Shown: one piece after another, positions 8,897 through 49,241 of the stretch
Layout: every line of letters starts with the position of its first letter
How positions within the stretch are numbered: the stretch's first letter is position 1
DNA from: Myxococcales bacterium
Lineage (GTDB): Bacteria > Myxococcota_A > UBA9042
Direction of reading: 5' to 3'
Assembly: GCA_009692425.1 (NCBI GenBank)
Contig: SHZF01000002.1
Location: forward strand, 64,992 to 128,991
Length of the DNA stretch: 64,000 nucleotides
Translations under genes and position numbers: made by a program
The notes under the pieces: model-generated
The model's input: only the letters and a program-made list of their open reading frames with translations
Databases searched by the model: none
What the model was told of the DNA's origin: nothing

Positions 8897-10489
<1,593 letters not shown>

Positions 10490-10498
10490 TTTACAGTT

Positions 10499-11512
10499 CT
10501 AGGTGCCGCGGGCCATGTCGCGCAACTGGGCCACGCTCGTCTCGGGCAACAACAGCGCCGTCGGCGTAGCCAGGAACTTGCGCGCCCGCGGCCCGTCGCC
10601 CAGCGCCATGAGCGCCGCAGCTTGGACAGCAGCCATGTCGGCAGAAGCCGGCAATCGCTCCGCGTAACGCAGCGCATCTTCCCATTCACCCAGCCGCGCC
10701 GACGCGACCGCGAGCACGTGCCACACGTGGGTCAGTTCGGATTGCGACAGCCACGGCTCCGCGCGCGCCTGGTGGCTGAAGCGGATGGCGGCATCGTAGT
10801 CGCCGGTGTCGAAGGCAGCCCGCGCCTGGTCGAGCAGTTCGCGCACGCGGGCGTGCTTGTCGGTTTCGTGGCGCGCGGGGTCCACGTCGAGGGCCTTCAG
10901 CATCCGCCAGTTCTCGAGCGCGGCCATGCCGAGCATGATGCCCCCGAACATCCAGCCGCGCGTCAGCATCCAGGCGGCAACGAGGCCGCCGACGATGACG
11001 CCGGCCCGATAGGTGACGCGATCGGCGCGCAACGGCGTGCGGATCACCTTGCGCAGCCCGGTGCGGAGCAGCATGCCGCCGTCGAGGGGCATGATCGGCA
11101 ACAGGTTGTACAGGCCCCAGATCACGTTGATCTGCATGCCGACGTTGCACACGAGCGCGACCAGGCCGTCTGCCTGCGTGCCGGCGATGGCGAACCCGAT
11201 CGCGAGCACGAAATTCATCGCCGGGCCGGCCGCGACGATCAGGAACTCGTGCAGGGGGCGCTGCGCCGGCTGGTGGCGACAGAATCCGCCGAAGCCGGTC
11301 AGCACGACCTCCGGTTCGAGGCCGAGCAACTTGCTGACCGTGCCGTGGCCCAGTTCGTGCGCCAACGTCGAGAAGCTGCCGACGAGCACGGCCGCGATAC
11401 CGAATGCAACGCCGTGGTTGAACGCCCACATGAAAAGCATCGCGAGGATAAGGAAGTGCCAGCCCGACACCCATACCGGGATGCCCAGCAGCACGAAAAG
11501 CGGTCGCGTCAT
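10499..11512 (-). CDS. Site-2 protease (M50) family metallopeptidase with C-terminal TPR-like helices
   Basis: HELGH, AAGPAMN and NLLPIMPLDGG motifs; TM segments; helical C-terminal region. Start MTRPLF. Confidence 0.88.
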   Translation of the reverse strand: MTRPLFVLLGIPVWVSGWHFLILAMLFMWAFNHGVAFGIAAVLVGSFSTLAHELGHGTVSKLLGLEPEVVLTGFGGFCRHQPAQRPLHEFLIVAAGPAMNFVLAIGFAIAGTQADGLVALVCNVGMQINVIWGLYNLLPIMPLDGGMLLRTGLRKVIRTPLRADRVTYRAGVIVGGLVAAWMLTRGWMFGGIMLGMAALENWRMLKALDVDPARHETDKHARVRELLDQARAAFDTGDYDAAIRFSHQARAEPWLSQSELTHVWHVLAVASARLGEWEDALRYAERLPASADMAAVQAAALMALGDGPRARKFLATPTALLLPETSVAQLRDMARGT

Positions 11513-39081: not shown

Positions 39082-40821
39082 ATGCGCGCCCCGAATCAAC
39101 CCCAAATCGACGGCGAAGCGGCGGACCCGGCCGAGGTGGGCCTCGCAGTCCGCGCCTTCGACTCCGACGCAGGCCCAACGTCGCAGGAGCCTCCGCTGCA
39201 TGAGCCGCCCGATTGGCTGACTGGTGCGCTCGACGCCGACGATGTGCCGTTCTTCGATGCCGGTGGGGCGCCGGTTGCCCCCATCGAGACAGCGCCGGAC
39301 GGTGTGCCGCACTCCGCGAACACTCCCGGTCCGGCAACGCTACCCGCGGCGCCAGCGTCGCAAGCGGGCACCGGGCCCCACGCACGCTCCCACACCTTCC
39401 CCGCTGGCAGGCGCAACGAACGGGCTGCCGGCGGTGGCGGCCTTGGCGAGCCGCCGCCCTCGCCGCCGGCTGACATCGTGGCTGAGCGCGGCGTGATCGC
39501 CAGTTGCCTGCTCGACCCGAACAGTGTCGCGCTGGCCCAGACCCACGTGCGCCACGCTGACTTCTACGATCGTCGCCATGCGCTCGTGTTTCGCGCGATC
39601 GAGGAACTGTCGCTCGCCGGGCGCGACGCCGACCTCGTCAGCGTGTTCGAGACGCTGGGGCGCATGGGCGAGGCCGACAAGGTGGGGTTCACCTACCTCG
39701 TCGAGTTGAGCAACCATCCGTCGGCCGTGCTGTCGCTGGAGCCCTCCGCCCGCCGCGTCGCCAAGCTGGCGGCCGTGCATCGCCTCGCGGCCGTGGCGCA
39801 GCGGCTGGCGACCGACGCCTTTCGGCCCGGACTCGACCCCGACGAATACATCATCAGCGCGGAGGGGGCCCTGCGCACCGCGTTGCAGGATTCGGTCAAG
39901 GGTGGCGCCCACCGCGTCGGCGACATTGCGCCCGGCGTGTACCAGCGCGCGATGGAAGCTGGCCAGCGCAAGGGCCAACTGACCGGCATCTCGACCGGCT
40001 ATCGCGACATCGATCGCATGACGCACGGCCTGCACCCGAGCGACCTCATCGTGCTTGCGGCGCGGCCCGGCGTAGGCAAGACGTCGTTTGCGATGAACCT
40101 GGCGCTGCACGTCGCATTCGGCCGCAAGCGCGATGCCAAGGACGAGTGGGACCACCCAGGCGTGCTCGTGTTCTCGCTCGAAATGGGCAAGGAGCAACTC
40201 GTGCAGCGGCTCATCTCGGCCCGCTCCGGGGTGCCGCTGACCAGCCTGCGCACGGGCGACATGAACGTCGACGAGCAGATCGAGGTGCGCAACGCCGTGG
40301 CCGATCTGAACGAATTGCCGTTCTTCATCGACGACACGCCCGGCCTCACCTCGATCGATGTGCGCGCCCGGGCCAAGCGGGTCGCCCAGGGGCCGCACGG
40401 GCTCGACCTCATCGTCATCGACTACCTACAGCTCATGCGCGGCGCCACGCAGAACCGCAACGCGAACCGCGAGGAGCAAGTCAGCGAGGCGTCGCGCTCG
40501 CTCAAGGGCCTGGCGAAGGAACTGGGCTGCACCGTGATGGCGCTCAGCCAGTTGAACCGCTCCGTCGAACGCGAGAAGGACCATCGCCCCAAACTGGCCG
40601 ACCTGCGCGAGTCGGGCGCGATCGAGCAGGATGCCGACATCGTGGCCTTCATCTACCGCGAATACATGTACACGAAGAATCCCGAGGACGAGAACAAGGC
40701 GACGCTCCTGATCGCCAAGCACCGCTCCGGAGAACTCGGCGACATCGCGCTGCACTTCGAGGGGCGGCTGACGAAGTTCACGACCGTCGCCAACGTGAAC
40801 GACCAGTACGCGGGCTATTGA
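39082..40821 (+). CDS. dnaB: Replicative DNA helicase
   Basis: AERGVI, GISTGY, AARPGVGKT, FSLEM, IDYLQLM, ALSQLNR, DLRESGAIEQDAD, IAKHRSG. Confidence 0.96.
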   Translation: MRAPNQPQIDGEAADPAEVGLAVRAFDSDAGPTSQEPPLHEPPDWLTGALDADDVPFFDAGGAPVAPIETAPDGVPHSANTPGPATLPAAPASQAGTGPHARSHTFPAGRRNERAAGGGGLGEPPPSPPADIVAERGVIASCLLDPNSVALAQTHVRHADFYDRRHALVFRAIEELSLAGRDADLVSVFETLGRMGEADKVGFTYLVELSNHPSAVLSLEPSARRVAKLAAVHRLAAVAQRLATDAFRPGLDPDEYIISAEGALRTALQDSVKGGAHRVGDIAPGVYQRAMEAGQRKGQLTGISTGYRDIDRMTHGLHPSDLIVLAARPGVGKTSFAMNLALHVAFGRKRDAKDEWDHPGVLVFSLEMGKEQLVQRLISARSGVPLTSLRTGDMNVDEQIEVRNAVADLNELPFFIDDTPGLTSIDVRARAKRVAQGPHGLDLIVIDYLQLMRGATQNRNANREEQVSEASRSLKGLAKELGCTVMALSQLNRSVEREKDHRPKLADLRESGAIEQDADIVAFIYREYMYTKNPEDENKATLLIAKHRSGELGDIALHFEGRLTKFTTVANVNDQYAGY

Positions 40822-42623
40822 CCCGTCCGGAGCCTCCGTTGCCCGCCACCGCCGCCCCGCCGTTCCCGGCCCACCGCCTGCGCCTGCTTGAGACGATCCG
40901 CACCTCGATCGTGGGCGACGACCGCGTGATCGAGGGACCGTTCGGTCCACGCCGCGTCACGTACGCTGACTACACCGCATCGGGGCGCTCGCTCTCGTTC
41001 ATCGAGGATTTTCTGCGCGACGAGGTGATGCCGCTCTATGCCAACACGCACACAGAGTCGTCGGGCACGGGACGCCAGACCGGGCGCTTTCGCGAAGATG
41101 CCCGCGCATTGATCCACCGGGCCGTGGGCGGCGGGCCCGACGACCTCGTCGTGTTCACGGGCTCCGGTGCGACGGCCGCAATCAACAAGCTGGTCGGCCT
41201 GCTCGGCCTGCGGTTGCCTGCCGAACTGGATGCACGCTGGGGCCTGCGTGGGCACATCCCGACCGTCGCGCGGCCGGTCGTGTTCATCGGGCCGTACGAA
41301 CACCATTCCAACGAACTGCCGTGGCGCGAGAGCATCGCCGACGTCGTCACGATCGACGAGGACGCCGACGGTCATCCCGACCTCGCGCATCTCGACGCCG
41401 AGTTGCGCCGCTACACGGATCGCCCCCTGAAGATCGGTTCATTTTCCGCCGCTTCGAATGTAACCGGCATCGGTTCGCAGACGTGGGCGATCTCGACGCT
41501 GCTCCACCGCCACGGCGCGCTCGCCCTGTGGGACTTCGCCGCCGCCGCGCCTTATGTGCCGATCGACGTCAACCACGTCGGCTCCGGCGCCGATGCCGGG
41601 CTGGCCTACAAGGACGCAGTCTTCCTGTCGCCGCACAAGTTCATCGGCGGCCCCGGTACCCCGGGCGTGCTCGTCGCCAAGCGCCACCTGTTCCGCTCGG
41701 CCGTGCCCACGGCGCCGGGCGGCGGCACGGTGGCCTACGTCAATCCGGTCGAGCATCGCTACCTCGACGACCCCGTCCAGCGCGAAGAAGCCGGCACGCC
41801 CGCGATCCTGGAGGCCATCCGCGCCGGCCTCGTGTTCCAACTGAAGGAAGCCGTCGGCGCCGACCTGATCCGCGAGCGGGAGGAGCATTTCCTGCGCCGC
41901 GCCATCGACGCCTGGCAGCGCCACCCCAACGTGCGCATCCTGGGCAATCTGGACGCGTGGCGCCTGTCGATCGTGAGCTTCATGGTGCGCCACCGCGACG
42001 GCTGGCTGCACCACAACTACGTGGTCGCGCTGCTGAACGACCTGTTCGGCATTCAGGCGCGCGGCGGGTGCTCGTGCGCGGGCCCGTACGGCCATCGCCT
42101 GCTTGGCATCGATCTGACGACGAGCCACGCGTTCGAGCAGGAGATCCTGCGCGGCTGCGAAGGCATCAAGCCCGGCTGGGTGCGGGTCAACTTCAATTAC
42201 TTCATCGGCGAGACGCCGTTCGACTTTCTCGTGCGCGCCGTCGAATTCATTGCCGACCACGGCTGGAAGTTGCTGCCGCTCTATGCGTTCGACCCCTGGA
42301 CCGGCTTGTGGCGGCACAGGGCCATCGACGCGGCGCCGCTGCTGCGCCTGCACGACATCCGCTACGACGGCGGCCGCCTGGAGTACCGGGCGCGCCACGC
42401 TACCGAGCCGGAGTTCGCCTTGGCCGGGTACCTCGACCTCGCCCACGGCATCGTGGCGCATACCGTCGAGGGTCTGGAACGTGCCGGAGCGGAACAGCCG
42501 GCGTCCCCGTTGGACCCGCCTGACGACCCTGCCGCACTCCGGCCGCTCAGCGCCGACTACCGCCGCTTGCGCTGGTTTCCGCTGCCCGACGAGGTACGCA
42601 TGGAACTGGCGCGCGCACCCTGA
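40818..42623 (+). CDS. Aminotransferase class V / cysteine desulfurase-like PLP enzyme
   Basis: TTG start overlapping the dnaB TGA; YADYTASG, EHHSN, ASNVTG, SPHKF (PLP Lys), EAGTP, RGGCSCAGPY. Confidence 0.9.
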   Translation: MTRPEPPLPATAAPPFPAHRLRLLETIRTSIVGDDRVIEGPFGPRRVTYADYTASGRSLSFIEDFLRDEVMPLYANTHTESSGTGRQTGRFREDARALIHRAVGGGPDDLVVFTGSGATAAINKLVGLLGLRLPAELDARWGLRGHIPTVARPVVFIGPYEHHSNELPWRESIADVVTIDEDADGHPDLAHLDAELRRYTDRPLKIGSFSAASNVTGIGSQTWAISTLLHRHGALALWDFAAAAPYVPIDVNHVGSGADAGLAYKDAVFLSPHKFIGGPGTPGVLVAKRHLFRSAVPTAPGGGTVAYVNPVEHRYLDDPVQREEAGTPAILEAIRAGLVFQLKEAVGADLIREREEHFLRRAIDAWQRHPNVRILGNLDAWRLSIVSFMVRHRDGWLHHNYVVALLNDLFGIQARGGCSCAGPYGHRLLGIDLTTSHAFEQEILRGCEGIKPGWVRVNFNYFIGETPFDFLVRAVEFIADHGWKLLPLYAFDPWTGLWRHRAIDAAPLLRLHDIRYDGGRLEYRARHATEPEFALAGYLDLAHGIVAHTVEGLERAGAEQPASPLDPPDDPAALRPLSADYRRLRWFPLPDEVRMELARAP

Positions 42624-42626
42624 GGC

Positions 42627-43205
42627 TCACTCGCAGACGAGACCGCAGTGCTTGGCGGCGAGGCTCACGCAGCCCGGCTTCGGCGGCGCCTCGACCACGA
42701 AGCACAGGTTGCCGCCGGCGCCCGTGGCCGGGACGCACGCATCGATGCTGCACGGATTGTTGTCGTTGCAGTCGAGCTGCGGTTGCGCCGGTTTGCAGGC
42801 GCCGCCCGCGCACTTGGCGAAAAGGGTGCACTTGTTGCCGTCGTCGCAGGTGCCGCTGCTGTCTGCGTGCGTGCAGCCCAACGCGGCAGTACAGGAGTCG
42901 AGCGTGCAACGATTGCCGTCATTGCAATCGGGCTGCGCGCCGCCAGCCTGGCACGCCATGTCGGCACACTTGTTGCCGACCGTGCACCCGTTGCCATCGC
43001 TGCACGTCACCGCCCCGGACAACGGCGTTGCCACGCACCGCCCAGGTCGCAGTACCACGAGCCGGCCCAGAGGTTGGCAACTCCTTGCGCGCCCACATCG
43101 AGCGCGGGGGAACCCGTGTCGGTGGCGGTGTTGGCCGGTGGCCTTGCACATGCCGCGGCGCAGGACACCCCAGTGACGAGAGCCGGAGTCCAGTTGTGCG
43201 CCCAA
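42627..43205 (-). pseudogene. Fragment of Cys-rich repeat protein, probably truncated
   Basis: Two CxDGNxCT...CNDxNxCxxDxC units like those at 24657-27449. The N-terminal part is non-repeat and lacks a signal peptide. Confidence 0.5.
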
Positions 43206-43265
43206 CTGTTGCCTATGCTCGCCCGGACTGGCTGGATGCGTCGTCTGCCAACGGCGCCCGACAGT

Positions 43266-44501
43266 CTACTCGGCCTCGATCGCCAGCGCATGGCGCCGCT
43301 CCACATATCCGTACGGCGCCGGGACCAGTTCGATCAGCGTGTGCAACGGCACTTCCACAAAGGGCGCCCGTTCGCGCGGCAGGTCCATGAAATAAGAGTA
43401 CAACGCCCGCAGCACCGCCTGGTGGGCGACGATGACTACGGGTCTGCGCTGCCGCTCGCACTCGATGATCACGGGCTCGAGCCTTTCAATTACGTCCTCA
43501 TAGCTCTCGCCGCGCGGGTAGCGGTAGCGCAGCTTGTCCTTGCGGCGGGCCGCGTACTCGTCGGGCATGCGCTCGGCGATCTCCCGATAGGTCAGGCCAT
43601 CGCAGACGCCGGCATCGATTTCGTCGAGCGCCCGCCAAGGCATCGCCGGCACCGCCAGCGGTGCACACGTCGCGATCGTGCGCCGCAGTGTGCTGCACCA
43701 GACGACCGGTGGCTCCATCGCCTGGCGCCGCACGAATCGCGCCAGTTGCGCGGCGTAGCGGTGCCCGCGTGGGCTGAGATCCGGGTCGCCGCCGATGCGG
43801 TCTTCGACGTTGTGGGTCGATTCGCCGTGGCGCGTCAGCCAGATCGGCCGCCGCACCACGTGCAGGTTGATCAGCAGCGACACGAGGCGCGCGGGCAGGT
43901 AGCCCTCGATGCGGTGCAGCACGACGATGCGCCCGACGTCGATGAGCCGCACGGAACTGGCCGGCTCGTCGGCATGGACCGGCTCGTACACTTTGGCGTA
44001 GTGGTCGATACGCTGGCGAAAATCGCGCACTGCGTCTTCTGGATCGATCCCGGCGTAGTCGGGCGACGACAGCTTCGTCTCGCGGATGTTCGCCTCCAGG
44101 ATCGACGGGTCCTCACACACGGATTCGACGAACACGACCGTACACCCTGCCGCCGAGCAGCGCGCCCGTACCTGGTCTCTACGGGAGCGGGTCGTGTTCG
44201 TGGCGTCGTAGAGTGCGACCTCGCCGCCCAACCGCATGAAGCCGAGCAGGTCGGCGAGAGCCAGTTCCGCCATTTCGGAGCGGGCACGCGCACCCTCGTC
44301 GTTGCGCGGGTCGAAGAAATCGGCGCGGTGGCCCGCACCCAGCCATTTGCGGCGGTAGTCCCCGGCGTTGAAGACTTGGGCGTTGTAGCCGAGCCACGCC
44401 AGGTAGCGCGCGATCTTGCGGGCGATCCAGGTCTTGCCGCGGGCGGGCAGGCCGACCATGCACAGCACAAGGCGCGTAGGTTCAGGGGCGGACTTCGCCA
44501 T
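43266..44501 (-). CDS. Bifunctional 6-phosphofructo-2-kinase/fructose-2,6-bisphosphatase (eukaryotic PFKFB-like)
   Basis: Kinase motifs MVGLPARGKT, FNAGDYRR, DATNTT, KLSSPDY. Phosphatase motifs RHGES, EIDAG, YRYPRGESYED, HQAVLR. 411 aa. Confidence 0.93.
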   Translation of the reverse strand: MAKSAPEPTRLVLCMVGLPARGKTWIARKIARYLAWLGYNAQVFNAGDYRRKWLGAGHRADFFDPRNDEGARARSEMAELALADLLGFMRLGGEVALYDATNTTRSRRDQVRARCSAAGCTVVFVESVCEDPSILEANIRETKLSSPDYAGIDPEDAVRDFRQRIDHYAKVYEPVHADEPASSVRLIDVGRIVVLHRIEGYLPARLVSLLINLHVVRRPIWLTRHGESTHNVEDRIGGDPDLSPRGHRYAAQLARFVRRQAMEPPVVWCSTLRRTIATCAPLAVPAMPWRALDEIDAGVCDGLTYREIAERMPDEYAARRKDKLRYRYPRGESYEDVIERLEPVIIECERQRRPVVIVAHQAVLRALYSYFMDLPRERAPFVEVPLHTLIELVPAPYGYVERRHALAIEAE

Positions 44502-44503
44502 CG

Positions 44504-45361
44504 TCAGTCCTTTCGGTCTGGCAGGGATCGGGCCCAGGCCAGATCGGCGGCGCGGGCGTGCTCCATGACACGGCGCACCACCTCGCTGCCTGCCTCCGTA
44601 CGCGGCAGCAGGTGGCCGACGCGGGGCAGGGAGACCGCCACCAGCCCCGGTCCCATGGACCCCGTCAATTCGGCGAGGACGGCACGGCACGGGACCGTGC
44701 GGTCCGCCGCGCCGTGCAGCGCCAGCACGGGGCACGGCAAGGGGCCGAGCCCGCGCCGCACCACATCCTGCAGGTCTTCGAGTTCAGTTACGGCATTCAA
44801 TGGGATCGCGTCGTAACACGGCGGCCGCGCGGCGCCGGGCAGGTCGGGAGCGTCCTTGCCGAGCACCTCGGGCCAGCCGAGTCGGGTCAACGCCGCCGCC
44901 GCGACGCGCTGCCACCCTGGCAGGTGAAGGGCTGTGGCGAGCAGCGCAACCGACGCGAGGGGCCGCCGCGCGGGACCGCCCACCTGCGGCCGCCGGTGGC
45001 GCGCCAGCAGCAGCGCCAGCAGCGCTCCCATCGACAGCCCGCACAGGTGAATGCGGTCGCAGCGGGTGTCCAGCCACGCGAGCGCCGCGTCGGCCGACGC
45101 CAGCCAATCGCGCCACCCCGTGCCTTGCAGCGCGCGCACCGACGTCGCGTGCCCTGCCAACACCGGCAAGGCGACGCTGAACCCGTGCGTCACAAATGCG
45201 TCGGCAAGCGGGCGTACCTCCCACGGCGACCCGGTCAAGCCGTGCAGGACCAACGCACCCGCACGCCCGCCGGAGTGCGCCAGCGGCTCGGCGCCCGTCG
45301 GGCAGCGGACGGGAACGCGCAACGCGGCCGGCAATTCCAGCAGATCGGTGGGTTCAGTCAC
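44504..45361 (-). CDS. Alpha/beta-hydrolase, carboxylesterase-like
   Basis: LHGLTG, GLSMG, HGAADRTV, late GH. Confidence 0.85.
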   Translation of the reverse strand: MTEPTDLLELPAALRVPVRCPTGAEPLAHSGGRAGALVLHGLTGSPWEVRPLADAFVTHGFSVALPVLAGHATSVRALQGTGWRDWLASADAALAWLDTRCDRIHLCGLSMGALLALLLARHRRPQVGGPARRPLASVALLATALHLPGWQRVAAAALTRLGWPEVLGKDAPDLPGAARPPCYDAIPLNAVTELEDLQDVVRRGLGPLPCPVLALHGAADRTVPCRAVLAELTGSMGPGLVAVSLPRVGHLLPRTEAGSEVVRRVMEHARAADLAWARSLPDRKD

Positions 45362-46439
45362 GGTCGCGTGCTCCCGCCGCCGCAGCGCCCCGCCGGTGCG
45401 GGCGGCGTGCCCCTGTTCGGTGCGCCTCCACCGTCCCCGCCACCAGCCAAAGCGGGCGTCCGCCTGCGACGACCCGGACAAACAAGGCATCTTCGGCGAG
45501 CGGCAGCGTGTCCGCCGCGCTCCGGTGGGGCAACGCAAAGCCCGCGCGCCAGCCTGGGCAGTCGCGTGCCAGCACGGCTCCGAGGCGCTGGAAAGTCCGC
45601 CGTGCCGCCGCCACGCCGCCGAGGCGGTCGCCCCACGGCGGATTGCACACAACGAATGCAGGAAGAGCCGTCGGAATCGGCTGGTGTGCGACGTCCCCCG
45701 TCACCCACCGGATCGCGTGCGCCACTCCCGCCCTCTCGGCATTGCGCTGGGCCCGCGCTACGCAGTCTGGATCGATGTCGCCGGCGCACACCGGGGGACC
45801 CTGCGCGGTTGCCTTCGCACCGCACGCCGCTTCGATCGCGAGCGTGCCGCTGCCCGTCATCGGGTCCCACAGCGCGCCGTTCCCGTGCCAGCCGACCAGC
45901 CGCAACAGCGCGGCCGCCACGTCCTCCCGCAGGGGCGCCGCGCCGGGCTCCTGGCGCCAGCCGCGCCGGGCCAGCAGGCCTCCGCCGGCGTCGATCGATA
46001 GCTCCACGCGGTCGCCGTCCGCCCGCGCCAGCACCACCAACTCGCCGCGCGCACCGGTCGCGGCGCCGACCCGCGCGTCCACCGCGCTGCGGGCCCCGAG
46101 CTGGCGCAGCAGTTCGGCCTGCATCCAGCGCATGCGATCCGGCGCTGCGCCGCGGCCGCTCCACGCCAGGCGAACGGCCTCGACCGGCGCCGGCACGTCG
46201 TGCCATGGCAGCCCGTCGACGAGTTGCGCGGCGTCCGTCACCGTGCGCAGCCGGCCGACACCCGCCCGGCGCCACAAGTGTGCACAACAGCGCAAGCGTC
46301 CCGCCACCGCGACAAGGTCGGCCGGCAGCGCGCGAAACGCCACGCCACCTGGCTCCGGGCTGCCGGGGAGGCCCAGATCGCCGAGTTCGGCGCACGCAAG
46401 CCCCTCGAGGCCGGGCAACGTCGCCGCGAACCAGTGCAC
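45354..46439 (-). CDS. RlmL/UPF0020-type RNA methyltransferase
   Basis: PGLE N-terminus, RRGWR, APLREDVAAALL, WDPMTGSGT, NPPWG. Confidence 0.82.
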   Translation of the reverse strand: MHWFAATLPGLEGLACAELGDLGLPGSPEPGGVAFRALPADLVAVAGRLRCCAHLWRRAGVGRLRTVTDAAQLVDGLPWHDVPAPVEAVRLAWSGRGAAPDRMRWMQAELLRQLGARSAVDARVGAATGARGELVVLARADGDRVELSIDAGGGLLARRGWRQEPGAAPLREDVAAALLRLVGWHGNGALWDPMTGSGTLAIEAACGAKATAQGPPVCAGDIDPDCVARAQRNAERAGVAHAIRWVTGDVAHQPIPTALPAFVVCNPPWGDRLGGVAAARRTFQRLGAVLARDCPGWRAGFALPHRSAADTLPLAEDALFVRVVAGGRPLWLVAGTVEAHRTGARRPHRRGAAAAGARDRD

Positions 46440-46595: not shown

Positions 46596-49241
46596 ATGTT
46601 CGCACGTTCGACCGTCGTCGTCACCACGGGCACCTGCCTGACCCTCGCCGCGCTGGCGTGCAGTTCGACCCAATCCCCGGCACCCGGCGCCGCCCAGTGC
46701 CTGCCGGGCACGGTGGGCTGCGCCAATCCCGGCACTGGCGACGTGGGCGGCTCAGGCCGCGGGGTGGACGCGGGCGTGACCGGCGGCGACGCGTCACCCA
46801 CCGGTGACGACGCCGGCAACGACGGAGCGGGTACTGGCGCAGACGGAGCGGCATTCAATACCGACGGCGGCAGCACAAGTCCCAAGCCCGACGCCAGCGC
46901 GCCCCCCGACGTACCCACACAGCCGTCGTCGAAGTTTACAGGGTATCCGTCTGCCGAACTCCAACTGCGCATCGTCGGGCCGAGCGGTCGCGGCCACGCC
47001 ACGGTGTCGGGCCAGATCATCGAAGTCGCTGCCGTCCTGTTCGGCAACGCCGACGAGGTCGTGTGGTCGACGACGACGGGCGCCAAGGGCAACGCGCACA
47101 ACGCTCCGTTCCTGCAGACCGACCCGATCAAGCTGGTGCCGGGCGACAACGTGGTGACGCTCACGGCATCGAACAAGGCCGAGGTCGTGACCGATCGCAT
47201 CGTCGTGACATACAATCCGCTGTTTTCCTTTCAAGACCGCTTGCGCGTCAACCCGCGTGTGCTGAAGCGCGGCAAGGCCACAGCGGTGACTGCCGTCATC
47301 AGCCTCGGCAAGGCTACCAACATCGTCAAGGGCAGCGCGAAGCTGTTTCGCGTCGATGCCGATGGCGCGGCCATCACCACGCTCGGCGCCCTGGCCGACG
47401 AAGGCGTGCTGTCCGACGGCGACGAAATCAAGGCCGACGGCCTGTACTCCAAGAAGGTGACGCTCAACGAAGCCAGCGTCGGCACGGCGCGGCTGCGCGT
47501 CTCCATCGACGTGGCGGGGATCGACGGCAAGACGATCGTGGCCTACAGCGACATCGCGGAGATCGACGTCGTGGACGACATCGCGCAGGCAGACTGCGAC
47601 GCCGCTCTGGCGGCATTGGGTACCGCAAAAGCCGACGCGGGCAAAGCCGCCAGCCCCGATGCTGCCCGCAAGGCCGCCATCGACGCGCTGAAGGCCAACC
47701 CCACTGTCCTCGACGCCGGACCGGCGAGCGACGGTTTCGGCCAGGCCGGCACGGGGGCTTGGGTGCGGTTCAAGTCTGGCCTGCTCGGCATCGTGCGGCT
47801 GGGCGCGGCGACCAACCGCGGTGGTGGCGGCGACGGCGACGGCCCCACGCGTGCCATGGGTGGCCTGGTTGGCGACGAAGGCCTGCAGACGGTCGAAGTC
47901 GGCTCCAAGCGTGCACTCCTGCTCAACCCGTTCGCGACGGCGCTGGGCACCACGGAAGTGGCCCACGCCAGCAAGCTGATGGCGGACCTCGCGTGCCCGG
48001 CCTACACGGTCGACAGTGCGGCCGACGCCCTGGCAGATTTGTCGAAGCTGCGCCGGATGTTCGACTACGGCATCACGGCCATCGCCACCCATGGCGAAGC
48101 GGCGTTCAAGGGCGTGCCGTGGCCCGACAAGCAGGCGCTGGGTTGGCGCCATCCCGGCTCGCAGGAGGCCCTGTTCACCGGCCACGTCGTCAGTTGTGGC
48201 TACTTCGCGTCCGTGGGCAGCCCGAAGAAGTGCAGCGAGAGCACACCCTGCGGCCCGGAGGCCGAGTGCGTAGTCAACCAGGTGGGAGGCACCGGCGACT
48301 GTATCGACCACCTTACGGCAGACCTGCGCAAGGGCCGTGTGGCGCTCACGTCGGACGGCACGTACGCGGTGCTTCCCGCCTTCATCGGTCGCCATGCCGA
48401 GCAGCGCCACCCGCAGAGCCTGGCCTACCTGGGCGGCTGCCGCAGCCTGTTCAACGGCACGCTGGCGGGCGAACTGTTCGCCGCAGGAGCTGCCGCCGTC
48501 GCCGGCTTCAATGGCTACGTCTCGAACGAATTTGCCACGAAATGGGGCAAGACCATGTTCGCCAACCTGATCGAGCAGAAGCAACTGTCGGGCAGCGCGC
48601 ACGCCCAGGTCGATGACCCGGCCAATCCCGGCTCGTGGTTCGGCCTCGTCGGCGCGCAGAACCTGAACGCGGCAAACATCGAAATCATGAATTCCAGTTG
48701 GGAATCCGGCAACATCCAAGGCTGGCTCAAGACCGGCGACGGCCGCGTCGTCGCCAAGCTCGGCTCCGCGATTCCGGTCGACGGCAAGTACATGGGCATC
48801 CTGTCCACGGGCCTCGGCTACACGACGCAGAAGGGAGAACTCGACCAGCGCTTCTGCATCCCGGCGGGCAAGGGCAAATTCTCCGTATGGTGGAAATTCT
48901 ACAGCGAGGAGTTCACCGAGTACTGCGGCAGCAAGTTCCAGGACGCCCTCGTCATCAAGTTCGAAGGCAAGCCCGGCAACAAGACCGTGGTCGATGCAAA
49001 GGTCGACGACCTGTGCGCGAAATCGAACTGCAGCGGCTGCGGCGGCCAGTACAAGGGGCTGACGGCGGCCGATGTCAGCTTCGACCAGGGCGGGGTGTAC
49101 ATGACGCCCTGGGTGCAATCGACGGCCGACATCACGCCGTTCGCAGGCAACGGCAACGTACGGCTGCGCCTGCTTGCGACCGACGTGGGCGACTCCGTGT
49201 ACGACACCGCGATCCTGGTCGACAAGCTGGAATTCGAGTAG
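46596..49241 (+). CDS. Large lipoprotein with Ig-like domains, a possible clan CD (CHAT/caspase-like) domain and a C-terminal beta-sandwich
   Basis: Lipobox ALAC; DEIKADGLYS motif; IATHG ... AYLGGCRS ... LFAAGAAAVAGF. Confidence 0.65.
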   Translation: MFARSTVVVTTGTCLTLAALACSSTQSPAPGAAQCLPGTVGCANPGTGDVGGSGRGVDAGVTGGDASPTGDDAGNDGAGTGADGAAFNTDGGSTSPKPDASAPPDVPTQPSSKFTGYPSAELQLRIVGPSGRGHATVSGQIIEVAAVLFGNADEVVWSTTTGAKGNAHNAPFLQTDPIKLVPGDNVVTLTASNKAEVVTDRIVVTYNPLFSFQDRLRVNPRVLKRGKATAVTAVISLGKATNIVKGSAKLFRVDADGAAITTLGALADEGVLSDGDEIKADGLYSKKVTLNEASVGTARLRVSIDVAGIDGKTIVAYSDIAEIDVVDDIAQADCDAALAALGTAKADAGKAASPDAARKAAIDALKANPTVLDAGPASDGFGQAGTGAWVRFKSGLLGIVRLGAATNRGGGGDGDGPTRAMGGLVGDEGLQTVEVGSKRALLLNPFATALGTTEVAHASKLMADLACPAYTVDSAADALADLSKLRRMFDYGITAIATHGEAAFKGVPWPDKQALGWRHPGSQEALFTGHVVSCGYFASVGSPKKCSESTPCGPEAECVVNQVGGTGDCIDHLTADLRKGRVALTSDGTYAVLPAFIGRHAEQRHPQSLAYLGGCRSLFNGTLAGELFAAGAAAVAGFNGYVSNEFATKWGKTMFANLIEQKQLSGSAHAQVDDPANPGSWFGLVGAQNLNAANIEIMNSSWESGNIQGWLKTGDGRVVAKLGSAIPVDGKYMGILSTGLGYTTQKGELDQRFCIPAGKGKFSVWWKFYSEEFTEYCGSKFQDALVIKFEGKPGNKTVVDAKVDDLCAKSNCSGCGGQYKGLTAADVSFDQGGVYMTPWVQSTADITPFAGNGNVRLRLLATDVGDSVYDTAILVDKLEFE

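Follow-up and report, generated by a model that had tools for sequence, protein, structure and literature searches.

Results and Discussion

The stretch of DNA analyzed here (the window) comprises 64,000 nucleotides of contig SHZF01000002.1 (positions 64,992 to 128,991, assembly GCA_009692425.1) from a Myxococcales bacterium of the GTDB lineage Myxococcota_A, UBA9042. The assembly has a size of 4.94 Mb and is 96% complete. On the reverse strand of the window lies a gene for a predicted 6-phosphofructo-2-kinase/fructose-2,6-bisphosphatase (PFK-2/FBPase-2). The gene, called the PFK-2 gene below, and its protein, P0001, are the subject of this study. The features of the locus, in window coordinates, are as follows.

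43266..44735, (-) strand: open reading frame (ORF) containing the PFK-2/FBPase-2 gene, with an in-frame ATG at 44501
43266..44501, (-) strand: bifunctional 6-phosphofructo-2-kinase/fructose-2,6-bisphosphatase gene (P0001), 411 aa, stop codon included
43857..44477, (-) strand: kinase domain (6PF2K, PF01591), residues 9-215, Pfam
43302..43844, (-) strand: phosphatase domain (His_Phos_1, PF00300, FBPase-2), residues 220-400, Pfam
44508..44514, (-) strand: GAAAGGA, a ribosome-binding-like site read from the sequence, 6 nt upstream of the PFK-2 ATG

The GAAAGGA motif is the putative ribosome-binding site of the PFK-2 gene. Both Pfam domains are assigned with wide margins. PF01591 scores 229.8 bits against a gathering cut-off of 27 and is matched over profile positions 12-221 of 223, and PF00300 scores 141.7 bits against a cut-off of 21.7 on the same polypeptide, C-terminal to the kinase. 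This arrangement, kinase and then phosphatase, is the eukaryotic order. The kinase half contains GLPARGKT (residues 17-24), FNAGDYRR (44-51), DATNTTRSRR (99-108), and KLSSPDY (143-149), whereas the phosphatase half contains RHGES (224-228), EIDAG (294-298), YRYPRGESYEDVIERLEPVI (326-345), and HQAV (360-363). When P0001 is compared with PDB chains using phmmer, the best match is human PFKFB3 (E 2.9e-118, query residues 10-399), followed by chains of rat testis PFKFB4, PFKFB2, and liver PFKFB1 (overall E 3e-118 to 6e-110); chains of the isolated rat FBPase-2 domain (1c7z/1fbt) match residues 218-399 with an E of 4e-61. A preliminary description of this DNA had called the protein a complete eukaryote-type PFK-2/FBPase-2 with both catalytic centers intact, and the eight motifs that it listed, all of them present, the two domains, and the PFKFB3 match bear this out.

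P0001 is close to a bare catalytic core. Only 16 residues precede the Walker A glycine, G17, and 11 follow the phosphatase domain, and the 411-aa sequence and its alignment show neither an N-terminal nor a C-terminal regulatory tail with target sites for kinases. Such tails are typical of individual isoforms and do not define the PFK-2/FBPase-2 family. NCBIfam has no model of this family, and within it P0001 matches only generic histidine-phosphatase models, far under their cut-offs. Because NCBIfam offers only these generic models, proteins of this kind carry the automatic JGI name "broad specificity phosphatase PhoE/predicted kinase", which undersells what they are.

Active-Site Conservation and Predicted Activity

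An alignment of 15 sequences (8 bacterial and 7 eukaryotic proteins) contains 72 invariant columns. In the kinase half these include Walker A, R50/R51, D99-N102, R107/R108, and R164, and in the phosphatase half R224-H225-G226, N231, R274, E294, Y305, R319, K323, R327, and H360; K143 and Y168 lie outside the invariant set. A larger set of 227 bacterial sequences was assembled from 107 translated loci and 120 database proteins, which partly overlap. Every one of the 227 retains K23, R50, R51, D99, T101, R108, K143, and R164 in the kinase and R224, H225, N231, R274, E294, Y305, R319, K323, R327, and H360 in the phosphatase. The listed kinase residues are conserved in 225-227 of the 227 sequences, R107 and Y168 included, with N102 present in 225 and position 24 occupied by Thr or Ser. 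P0001 itself has G17-T24, R50, R51, D99, T101, N102, R107, R108, K143, R164, and Y168 in its kinase half. We take the equivalent residues of the rat liver and testis enzymes to be K51, R78/R79, D128, R136/R137, K172, and R193 in the kinase and R257, H258, N264, R307, E327, Y338, R352, K356, R360, and H392 in the phosphatase. Offsets of 28/29 and 33, respectively, presumably align the sites of P0001 with the rat residues that bind ATP, fructose-6-phosphate (F6P), and fructose-2,6-bisphosphate (Fru-2,6-P2).

P0001 is 50-55% identical to plant, algal, amoebozoan, and fungal enzymes named PFK-2/FBPase-2. That both active sites stay fixed among the bacteria while overall identity drops to about 53% is strong evidence that both reactions are used, and P0001 most likely both synthesizes and hydrolyzes Fru-2,6-P2. 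The N-terminal P-loop kinase would transfer the gamma-phosphate of ATP to O-2 of F6P, and the C-terminal histidine-phosphatase would return Fru-2,6-P2 to F6P via an intermediate phosphorylated at His225. The balance of these two activities would set the cellular level of Fru-2,6-P2, which in turn would regulate the cycle between F6P and fructose-1,6-bisphosphate (F1,6BP). Since P0001 is without the regulatory tails of the animal, plant, and fungal enzymes, control of the protein is more likely to be exerted through metabolites or expression than through tail phosphorylation. Judging from these sequence comparisons, we consider it quite probable that P0001 is a genuine, native, and minimal PFK-2/FBPase-2 and that its host makes and hydrolyzes Fru-2,6-P2 as a regulator of the F6P/F1,6BP cycle.

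Occurrence in Bacteria

The gene is a regular component of the family to which the window belongs. Besides the genome of the window, the family is represented by 24 genomes, and 22 of them encode a full-length homologue with 53-69% identity, without an internal stop except for a single TAG in G007. The remaining two genomes are G009, in which the gene appears as two fragments at contig ends, and G001 (84% complete), in which none was found. In 12 other families of the class, represented by 16 genomes, no full-length homologue was found. Across the phylum, PF01591 exceeds its cut-off in 65 of 301 sampled genomes, concentrated in about 10 families; none of 14 named control genomes has such a match.

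Larger collections give the same picture. In a collection with one genome per prokaryotic species, at least 575 stretches encode a relative (575 of 599 among the pattern matches listed). The best 80 of these 575 are Myxococcota-type records, with carriers that include Sorangium cellulosum So ce56 and So0157-2 (both among the closed chromosomes), 13 further Sorangium strains, Minicystis rosea, Chondromyces apiculatus, Polyangium, Byssovorax, and Sandaracinaceae. Four of the 80 are labeled otherwise, as Enterobacteriaceae, Rhodobacterales, Proteobacteria, and "bacterium" metagenome-assembled genomes (MAGs); two of these (L068 and L090) were placed in a tree, and both fall within the bacterial clade. 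In a collection of 5.8 billion proteins, 5071 of 8000 scored candidates match. Some NCBI entries for Deltaproteobacteria, Sorangiineae, Myxococcota, and Polyangiaceae MAGs already bear the name 6-phosphofructo-2-kinase/fructose-2,6-bisphosphatase. Other histidine-phosphatase matches in the bacteria searched are generic His_Phos_1 proteins with about 30% identity.

PFK-2/FBPase-2 is thus a widely conserved gene of Myxococcota-type bacteria that is known at the annotation level, and not the sporadic deltaproteobacterial homologue that the preliminary description had mentioned. The gene in the window joins a family of which hundreds of genomes already have deposited and named members, and as a copy it adds little beyond them.

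Phylogeny and Direction of Transfer

A search with a profile of ten eukaryotic proteins gave 2341 representative clusters at E<=1e-30, of which the best 150 were retained; coverage below 345 of the 411 core positions led to the removal of 12 of these. An overview tree of 191 rows was computed with FastTree. A more careful tree of 91 rows was inferred with IQ-TREE from 411 columns under LG+C20+F+G4 by posterior mean site frequency (PMSF), with support given as ultrafast bootstrap (UFBoot)/SH-aLRT. Its rows are 32 bacterial sequences (of the 227), 6 giant-virus-like sequences, and 53 eukaryotic or unnamed ones, 22 of which were named via source labels, while one more could be traced only to a marine transcriptome (MMETSP); the choice of rows favored named rows and short branches.

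In the careful tree, 29 bacterial rows form one clade (98/98) with a stem of 0.073. The other three, from two other families (L097, L098, and L102; G084, G153, and G284), form a second clade (99/99), which could reflect a second acquisition or merely a divergent branch. Both bacterial clades, the green-plant clade (100/99), and the stramenopile clade (100/94) belong to one cluster of 48 rows (80/90), the inner forks of which are open; this cluster excludes opisthokont, amoebozoan, red-algal, CRuMs, jakobid, and other sequences. In the quick tree, all 31 bacterial rows form a single clade with an SH-aLRT of 93 and a stem of 0.061. The bacterial stem is therefore very short, 0.06-0.07 changes per column. 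Holding the 32 bacterial rows together in the careful tree costs 5.0 log-likelihood (lnL) units and is not rejected by the approximately unbiased (AU) test (p-AU 0.397). Midpoint rooting places the root among eukaryotes. The eukaryotic branching order obtained from this one gene departs from the species tree at several points, with Holozoa, for example, in three places, so the point at which the bacteria attach deserves little trust. One ancient inter-domain transfer is sufficient, by which the gene family would have reached, or left, Myxococcota. The preliminary description had held the gene relevant to the origin of the eukaryotic enzyme. The relevance is real. The bacterial sequences are placed amid eukaryotic lineages, with a very short stem, and the phylogeny is compatible with either direction of transfer.

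The free tree leans toward transfer from a eukaryote to a bacterium. We give about even credence to a donation of the fused gene by an early eukaryote, perhaps one on the line to green algae or stramenopiles, to an ancestor of several Myxococcota lineages, in which the catalytic core was kept and the rest stripped. Such a donation is consistent with the clustering of all 32 bacterial rows with the green-plant and stramenopile clades, with the midpoint root, and with the presence of the gene across eukaryotic supergroups. Among bacteria, moreover, the gene is seen only in Myxococcota-type genomes and there patchily (65 of 301, against 0 of 14 controls). However, the 48-row cluster is only moderately supported and its inner forks are not settled, the bacteria are not nested within any single named eukaryotic group, and the bacterial crown roughly equals the eukaryotic clades in depth of diversity. 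The disagreement with the eukaryotic species tree, which makes the attachment point unreliable, weighs against a eukaryotic donor as well.

Transfer in the opposite direction would mean that Myxococcota gave rise to the fused enzyme, or possessed it, and that the eukaryotic stem acquired it from them ahead of the last common ancestor of eukaryotes (LECA). We regard this as unlikely, although several observations speak for it. The AU test does not reject a tree in which one branch sets the 32 bacterial rows apart, as a root on that branch would require, the stem itself is very short, and the bacterial proteins consist of the bare two-domain core, free of lineage-specific inserts or tails. A 2026 phylogenomic study also attributes about 3.9% of the LECA proteome that it infers to Myxococcota as a donor, the stems being late and short (PMC13468126), and a second 2026 study reports narrower Myxococcota links (PMC12872458). 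On the other hand, "fructose" and "phosphofructo" have 0 occurrences in the main texts of both articles. Eukaryotes are not nested in the sampled bacterial diversity, and the free maximum-likelihood (ML) tree joins the bacteria with only part of the eukaryotes. Nor were separate-domain precursors seen in the bacteria searched, where the only related proteins are the generic His_Phos_1 proteins with about 30% identity. In its fullest form, this scenario would make PFK-2/FBPase-2, together with Fru-2,6-P2 control of glycolysis and gluconeogenesis, a myxobacterial invention inherited by eukaryotes before LECA, with Polyangia-type bacteria still running a tail-less circuit on a class I fructose-1,6-bisphosphatase (FBPase) and a simple 6-phosphofructokinase (PFK). 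We consider this proposal doubtful, but the data allow it, in that p-AU is 0.40, the stem is very short, and the active sites are frozen in 227 bacterial sequences.

Giant-Virus-like Marine Homologues

A marine cluster (P0371/P0403) shares the minimal architecture of P0001, at about 408 aa, and is 38-40% identical to it. In the careful tree it forms a separate, long-stemmed clade (100/99) near other eukaryotic lineages. The contigs that carry these genes (L112, at 10001-11227, and also L111 and L113-L119) have a GC content of 24% and a coding density of 90%. Their other genes encode the RNA polymerase subunits Rpb3/11 and Rpb5, two mitochondrial-carrier proteins, a NUDIX protein, phosphatidylserine (PS) decarboxylase, and DAHP synthase. 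The 408-aa proteins were considered as a second bacterial clade, which is ruled out by the 24% GC, the dense coding, and the Rpb3/11, Rpb5, and mitochondrial-carrier genes. From their gene content, the contigs look like those of a giant virus (Nucleocytoviricota) carrying PFK-2/FBPase-2, and the Methylobacterium sp. label that NCBI gives to one member of the cluster is probably a mislabel.

Candidate Targets of Fru-2,6-P2 in the Host

Regulation by Fru-2,6-P2 would require a target, and the host genome offers two enzymes of the F6P/F1,6BP cycle. One is its single PFK, encoded at L009 1342-2463, a protein of 373 aa from the likely start and of the single-unit bacterial type. It scores 354.8 bits against the ATP-dependent PFK subfamily model NF002872 of NCBIfam, thereby passing the cut-off of 253, and only 201.7 bits against TIGR02478 (6PF1K_euk), for which the cut-off is 708. 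It is closest to the mixed ATP/PPi (pyrophosphate) subfamily TIGR02483, yet lies under the cut-off of that model. The known allosteric site for Fru-2,6-P2 of eukaryotic PFK-1 resides in the duplicated, fused enzyme. The FBPase of Escherichia coli is inhibited by Fru-2,6-P2. The second enzyme is the host's one class I FBPase, encoded at L010 1459-2514, which scores 433.7 bits against the equivalog model NF006778 (cut-off 368); a search of the 96%-complete genome turned up no FBPase of the GlpX type. Fru-2,6-P2 is described as a competitive active-site inhibitor of class I FBPases from mammals and Leishmania (PMC5639204). Because class I FBPases are inhibited in this way, the host FBPase is the most plausible candidate target, and Fru-2,6-P2 would act on it by competitive inhibition. 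Activation of the host's single PFK by Fru-2,6-P2 is possible.

Several observations weigh against a regulatory circuit of this kind. The duplicated, fused eukaryotic PFK-1 is not present in the host genome, at 96% completeness. Class I FBPase occurs in 19 of 24 genomes of the family, so that its co-occurrence with PFK-2 is not strict. In particular, one genus (g5; G004, G014, and G020, 94-95% complete) keeps the PFK-2 gene in three of three genomes, and class I FBPase (PF00316) was found in none of the three. Gene neighborhoods, scanned at 12 loci, are variable, contain no carbohydrate-metabolism genes, and give no hint of function. Finally, in the full-text literature searched, to which subscription papers were mostly outside, we found no enzyme assay, metabolite, or expression data on any bacterial member and, with some phrase queries probably blind to the comma in "2,6", no paper pairing the enzyme name with myxobacterial names. 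PFK was found in 40 of 41 genomes, and since it is nearly universal, its co-occurrence with PFK-2 is uninformative either way. In the three g5 genomes, the best PFK match scores above those of other genomes, with an E of about 1e-107, which hints that the g5 PFK is of a different type.

These observations could instead mean that P0001 is an active enzyme whose product, in these bacteria, does not regulate PFK or FBPase allosterically. The enzyme might work on a sugar phosphate of a related kind, or Fru-2,6-P2 might have a different role, for example in signaling development or carbon storage. We judge this to be improbable. It would be in keeping with the missing eukaryote-type PFK-1, with the three g5 genomes that keep the PFK-2 gene and show no class I FBPase, and with the count of zero carbohydrate-metabolism genes linked in 12 loci. 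However, the residues with which the rat and human enzymes contact F6P or Fru-2,6-P2 are all invariant, which leaves little room for an altered substrate. Our preferred reading is still that Fru-2,6-P2 is made and hydrolyzed to regulate the F6P/F1,6BP cycle, with the class I FBPase as its candidate target.

Gene Neighborhood and Native Status

Two genes lie upstream of the PFK-2 gene on the same strand.

44504..45361, (-) strand: alpha/beta-hydrolase (esterase-like) gene, directly upstream of the PFK-2 gene, Pfam Abhydrolase_6/Hydrolase_4
45354..46439, (-) strand: RlmL/UPF0020-type RNA methyltransferase gene, Pfam PF01170 + RlmL_1st

The stop codon of the esterase-like gene, TGA at 44504-44506, ends 2 nt before the PFK-2 ATG, and the GAAAGGA motif at 44508-44514 falls within the 3' end of the esterase-like gene, in its last codons. 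The start of that gene is uncertain, its ORF being open to 45652, and the end of the methyltransferase ORF at 45354 adjoins or overlaps it. The methyltransferase, esterase, and PFK-2 genes form an apparent three-gene transcription unit, with the methyltransferase first. This linkage is peculiar to the genome studied here. Neither an esterase nor a methyltransferase gene was found beside the PFK-2 gene at any of 87 other loci when the fetched flanks (1.5-3 kb per side, shorter at contig ends) were searched by tblastn at E<=1e-5. The linkage therefore argues only against contamination and is not informative on function. The neighbors at 12 diverse loci (PTPS, TMEM260-like, ECH, PHO4, serpin, PBP, Hsp33, and others) are mutually unrelated. 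A functional link with the esterase and methyltransferase, absent from the 87 loci, or with the unrelated neighbors at the 12 loci was ruled out.

The base composition of the PFK-2 gene is that of its surroundings. Its GC content is 67.5%, compared with 68.6% for the window, and its GC content at third codon positions (GC3) is 85%, compared with 82-87% for the neighboring genes. Contigs from the Logan collection, assembled from DNA of four freshwater metagenome runs in two studies, cover the region in 30 of 30 bins (X1 and X2) or 26 of 30 (X3 and X4). Among the runs listed for this stretch, none was of RNA. The downstream gene junction is spanned by single contigs from X1 (42062-44024) and X2 (42675-44451), and the upstream junction by contigs from X1 (44424-44856) and, in the second study, X4 (44376-44595). 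X1 and X2 are possibly source samples of the assembly, so only X4 is clearly independent. The preliminary description had argued against contamination from the host-like GC content and from tight coupling to the esterase and RNA methyltransferase genes. The composition agrees on both measures, and the contigs across both junctions lead to the same answer; the coupling holds in this genome, with its 2-nt gap, but at none of the other 87 loci. A eukaryotic contaminant or a chimeric contig, for which the high similarity to eukaryotic proteins (50-55%) and nothing else speaks, has next to no likelihood, as the gene is intronless, matches its bacterial neighbors in GC and GC3, sits 2 nt from a bacterial-type upstream gene that contains its ribosome-binding-like site, is bridged to both sides by contigs from separate runs and studies, and has orthologues on closed chromosomes such as those of Sorangium cellulosum So ce56 (NC_010162) and Minicystis rosea (CP016211). 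The PFK-2/FBPase-2 gene is native, and contamination and chimerism are excluded for practical purposes.

At 27 of the 87 loci, a gene for a eukaryote-like Ser/Thr protein kinase is present at most 3 kb from the PFK-2 gene; 15 of the 27 are from Sorangium species with one shared arrangement. Examples are at L039 (890-2263, (-) strand), L022 (5526-7142), L056 (4185-5555, (-) strand), and L066 (5669-7315). PFK-2/FBPase-2 is controlled by phosphorylation in animals, and large myxobacterial genomes have a kinase density close to one per 30 kb. As a functional link, the adjacency was rejected. The rate after collapsing shared arrangements is about one kinase per 30 kb, near the background density, and the adjacency is probably due to chance in kinase-rich genomes.

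Other genes of the region were noted in passing. Downstream of the PFK-2 gene by 60 nt, a gene at 42627-43205 ((-) strand) encodes a 192-aa Cys-rich protein with Dictyostelium CTDC repeats (PF00526); CTDC-like repeat proteins are also encoded near the PFK-2 gene at 5 of the 87 other loci (L003, L011, L013, L014, and L017). Divergent from the methyltransferase gene is an 881-aa ORF at 46596-49241 ((+) strand) with a Gly/Asp/Ala-rich N-terminal region, for which Pfam gave no match at E<=0.001. A DnaB helicase with a Pro/Ala-rich N-terminal extension of about 125 aa is encoded at 39082-40821 ((+) strand), followed by a class V aminotransferase-family gene at 40146-42623 ((+) strand). At a locus of the same family (L012), DnaB also lies within 3 kb of the PFK-2 gene.

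Significance

Regulation of PFK by Fru-2,6-P2 "appears to be a eukaryote-specific mechanism" according to a passage of a 2026 preprint, which cites Michels and Rigden 2006 (PMC12873801), and the relevant portions of two 2025 reviews, on PFKs and on glycolysis, treat Fru-2,6-P2 for eukaryotes only. Our data identify an intact enzyme, with both active sites strictly conserved, as a standing feature of a large bacterial group. Since this group includes the cultured and genetically accessible Sorangium, the use of Fru-2,6-P2 by bacteria can be tested directly at the bench. The nearly star-like relation between the bacterial and eukaryotic sequences also makes the gene a useful single-gene test case for the proposed contribution of Myxococcota to the eukaryotic ancestor. 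If the enzyme did pass from Myxococcota to the eukaryotic stem, control by Fru-2,6-P2 would be a bacterial invention.

Comparison with Known Systems

Generic bacterial histidine phosphatases (PhoE/GpmB/CobC/PspA, His_Phos_1) have the RHG fold in common with the C-terminal half of P0001. The best NCBIfam matches to P0001 are the CobC and PspA models, which reach, for example, 85 bits against a cut-off of 163 and cover residues 220-385 only. Unlike P0001, these phosphatases are without the kinase half.

The animal PFKFB enzymes (human PFKFB3, 2AXN/6IC0; rat testis PFKFB4, 1BIF; liver PFKFB1, 1K6M) have two domains in the same order as P0001. An alignment of the sequences spans query residues 10-399 and contains three small gaps (E 3e-118), and the Walker A motif, the F6P-binding arginines, the RHG histidine, the Glu, and the second His are identical. 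P0001, at 411 aa, differs in its short ends, with roughly 10 residues ahead of the Walker A strand and roughly 10 beyond the phosphatase, and has no regulatory tails. Its RHGES motif, with Ser, corresponds to RHGEN in PFKFB3.

Plant F2KP and other long eukaryotic forms, which are fused to CBM20 or AMPK-CBM modules, are 51-55% identical to P0001 at 97% query coverage. They are named 6-phosphofructo-2-kinase/fructose-2,6-bisphosphatase by their sources and are among the nearest eukaryotic clades in the tree. The plant enzymes have an N-terminal extension of about 330 aa with a starch-binding module and small inserts not seen in bacteria. The plant target of Fru-2,6-P2 is a PPi-dependent PFK (PMC12965863), whereas the host PFK passes the ATP-dependent model NF002872.

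P0001 also has orthologues in Polyangia that have been cultured (Sorangium cellulosum So ce56, Minicystis rosea, Chondromyces apiculatus, and Polyangium spp.) and in many Myxococcota MAGs, which have the same length and architecture and 57-69% identity. Their gene neighborhoods are unlike that of the window, whose copy belongs to an uncultured freshwater family with sister families in the class that have the gene in 0 of 16 genomes. The Polyangia orthologues share the invariant residues of P0001 and its clade in the tree, and several are named PFK-2/FBPase-2 by NCBI.

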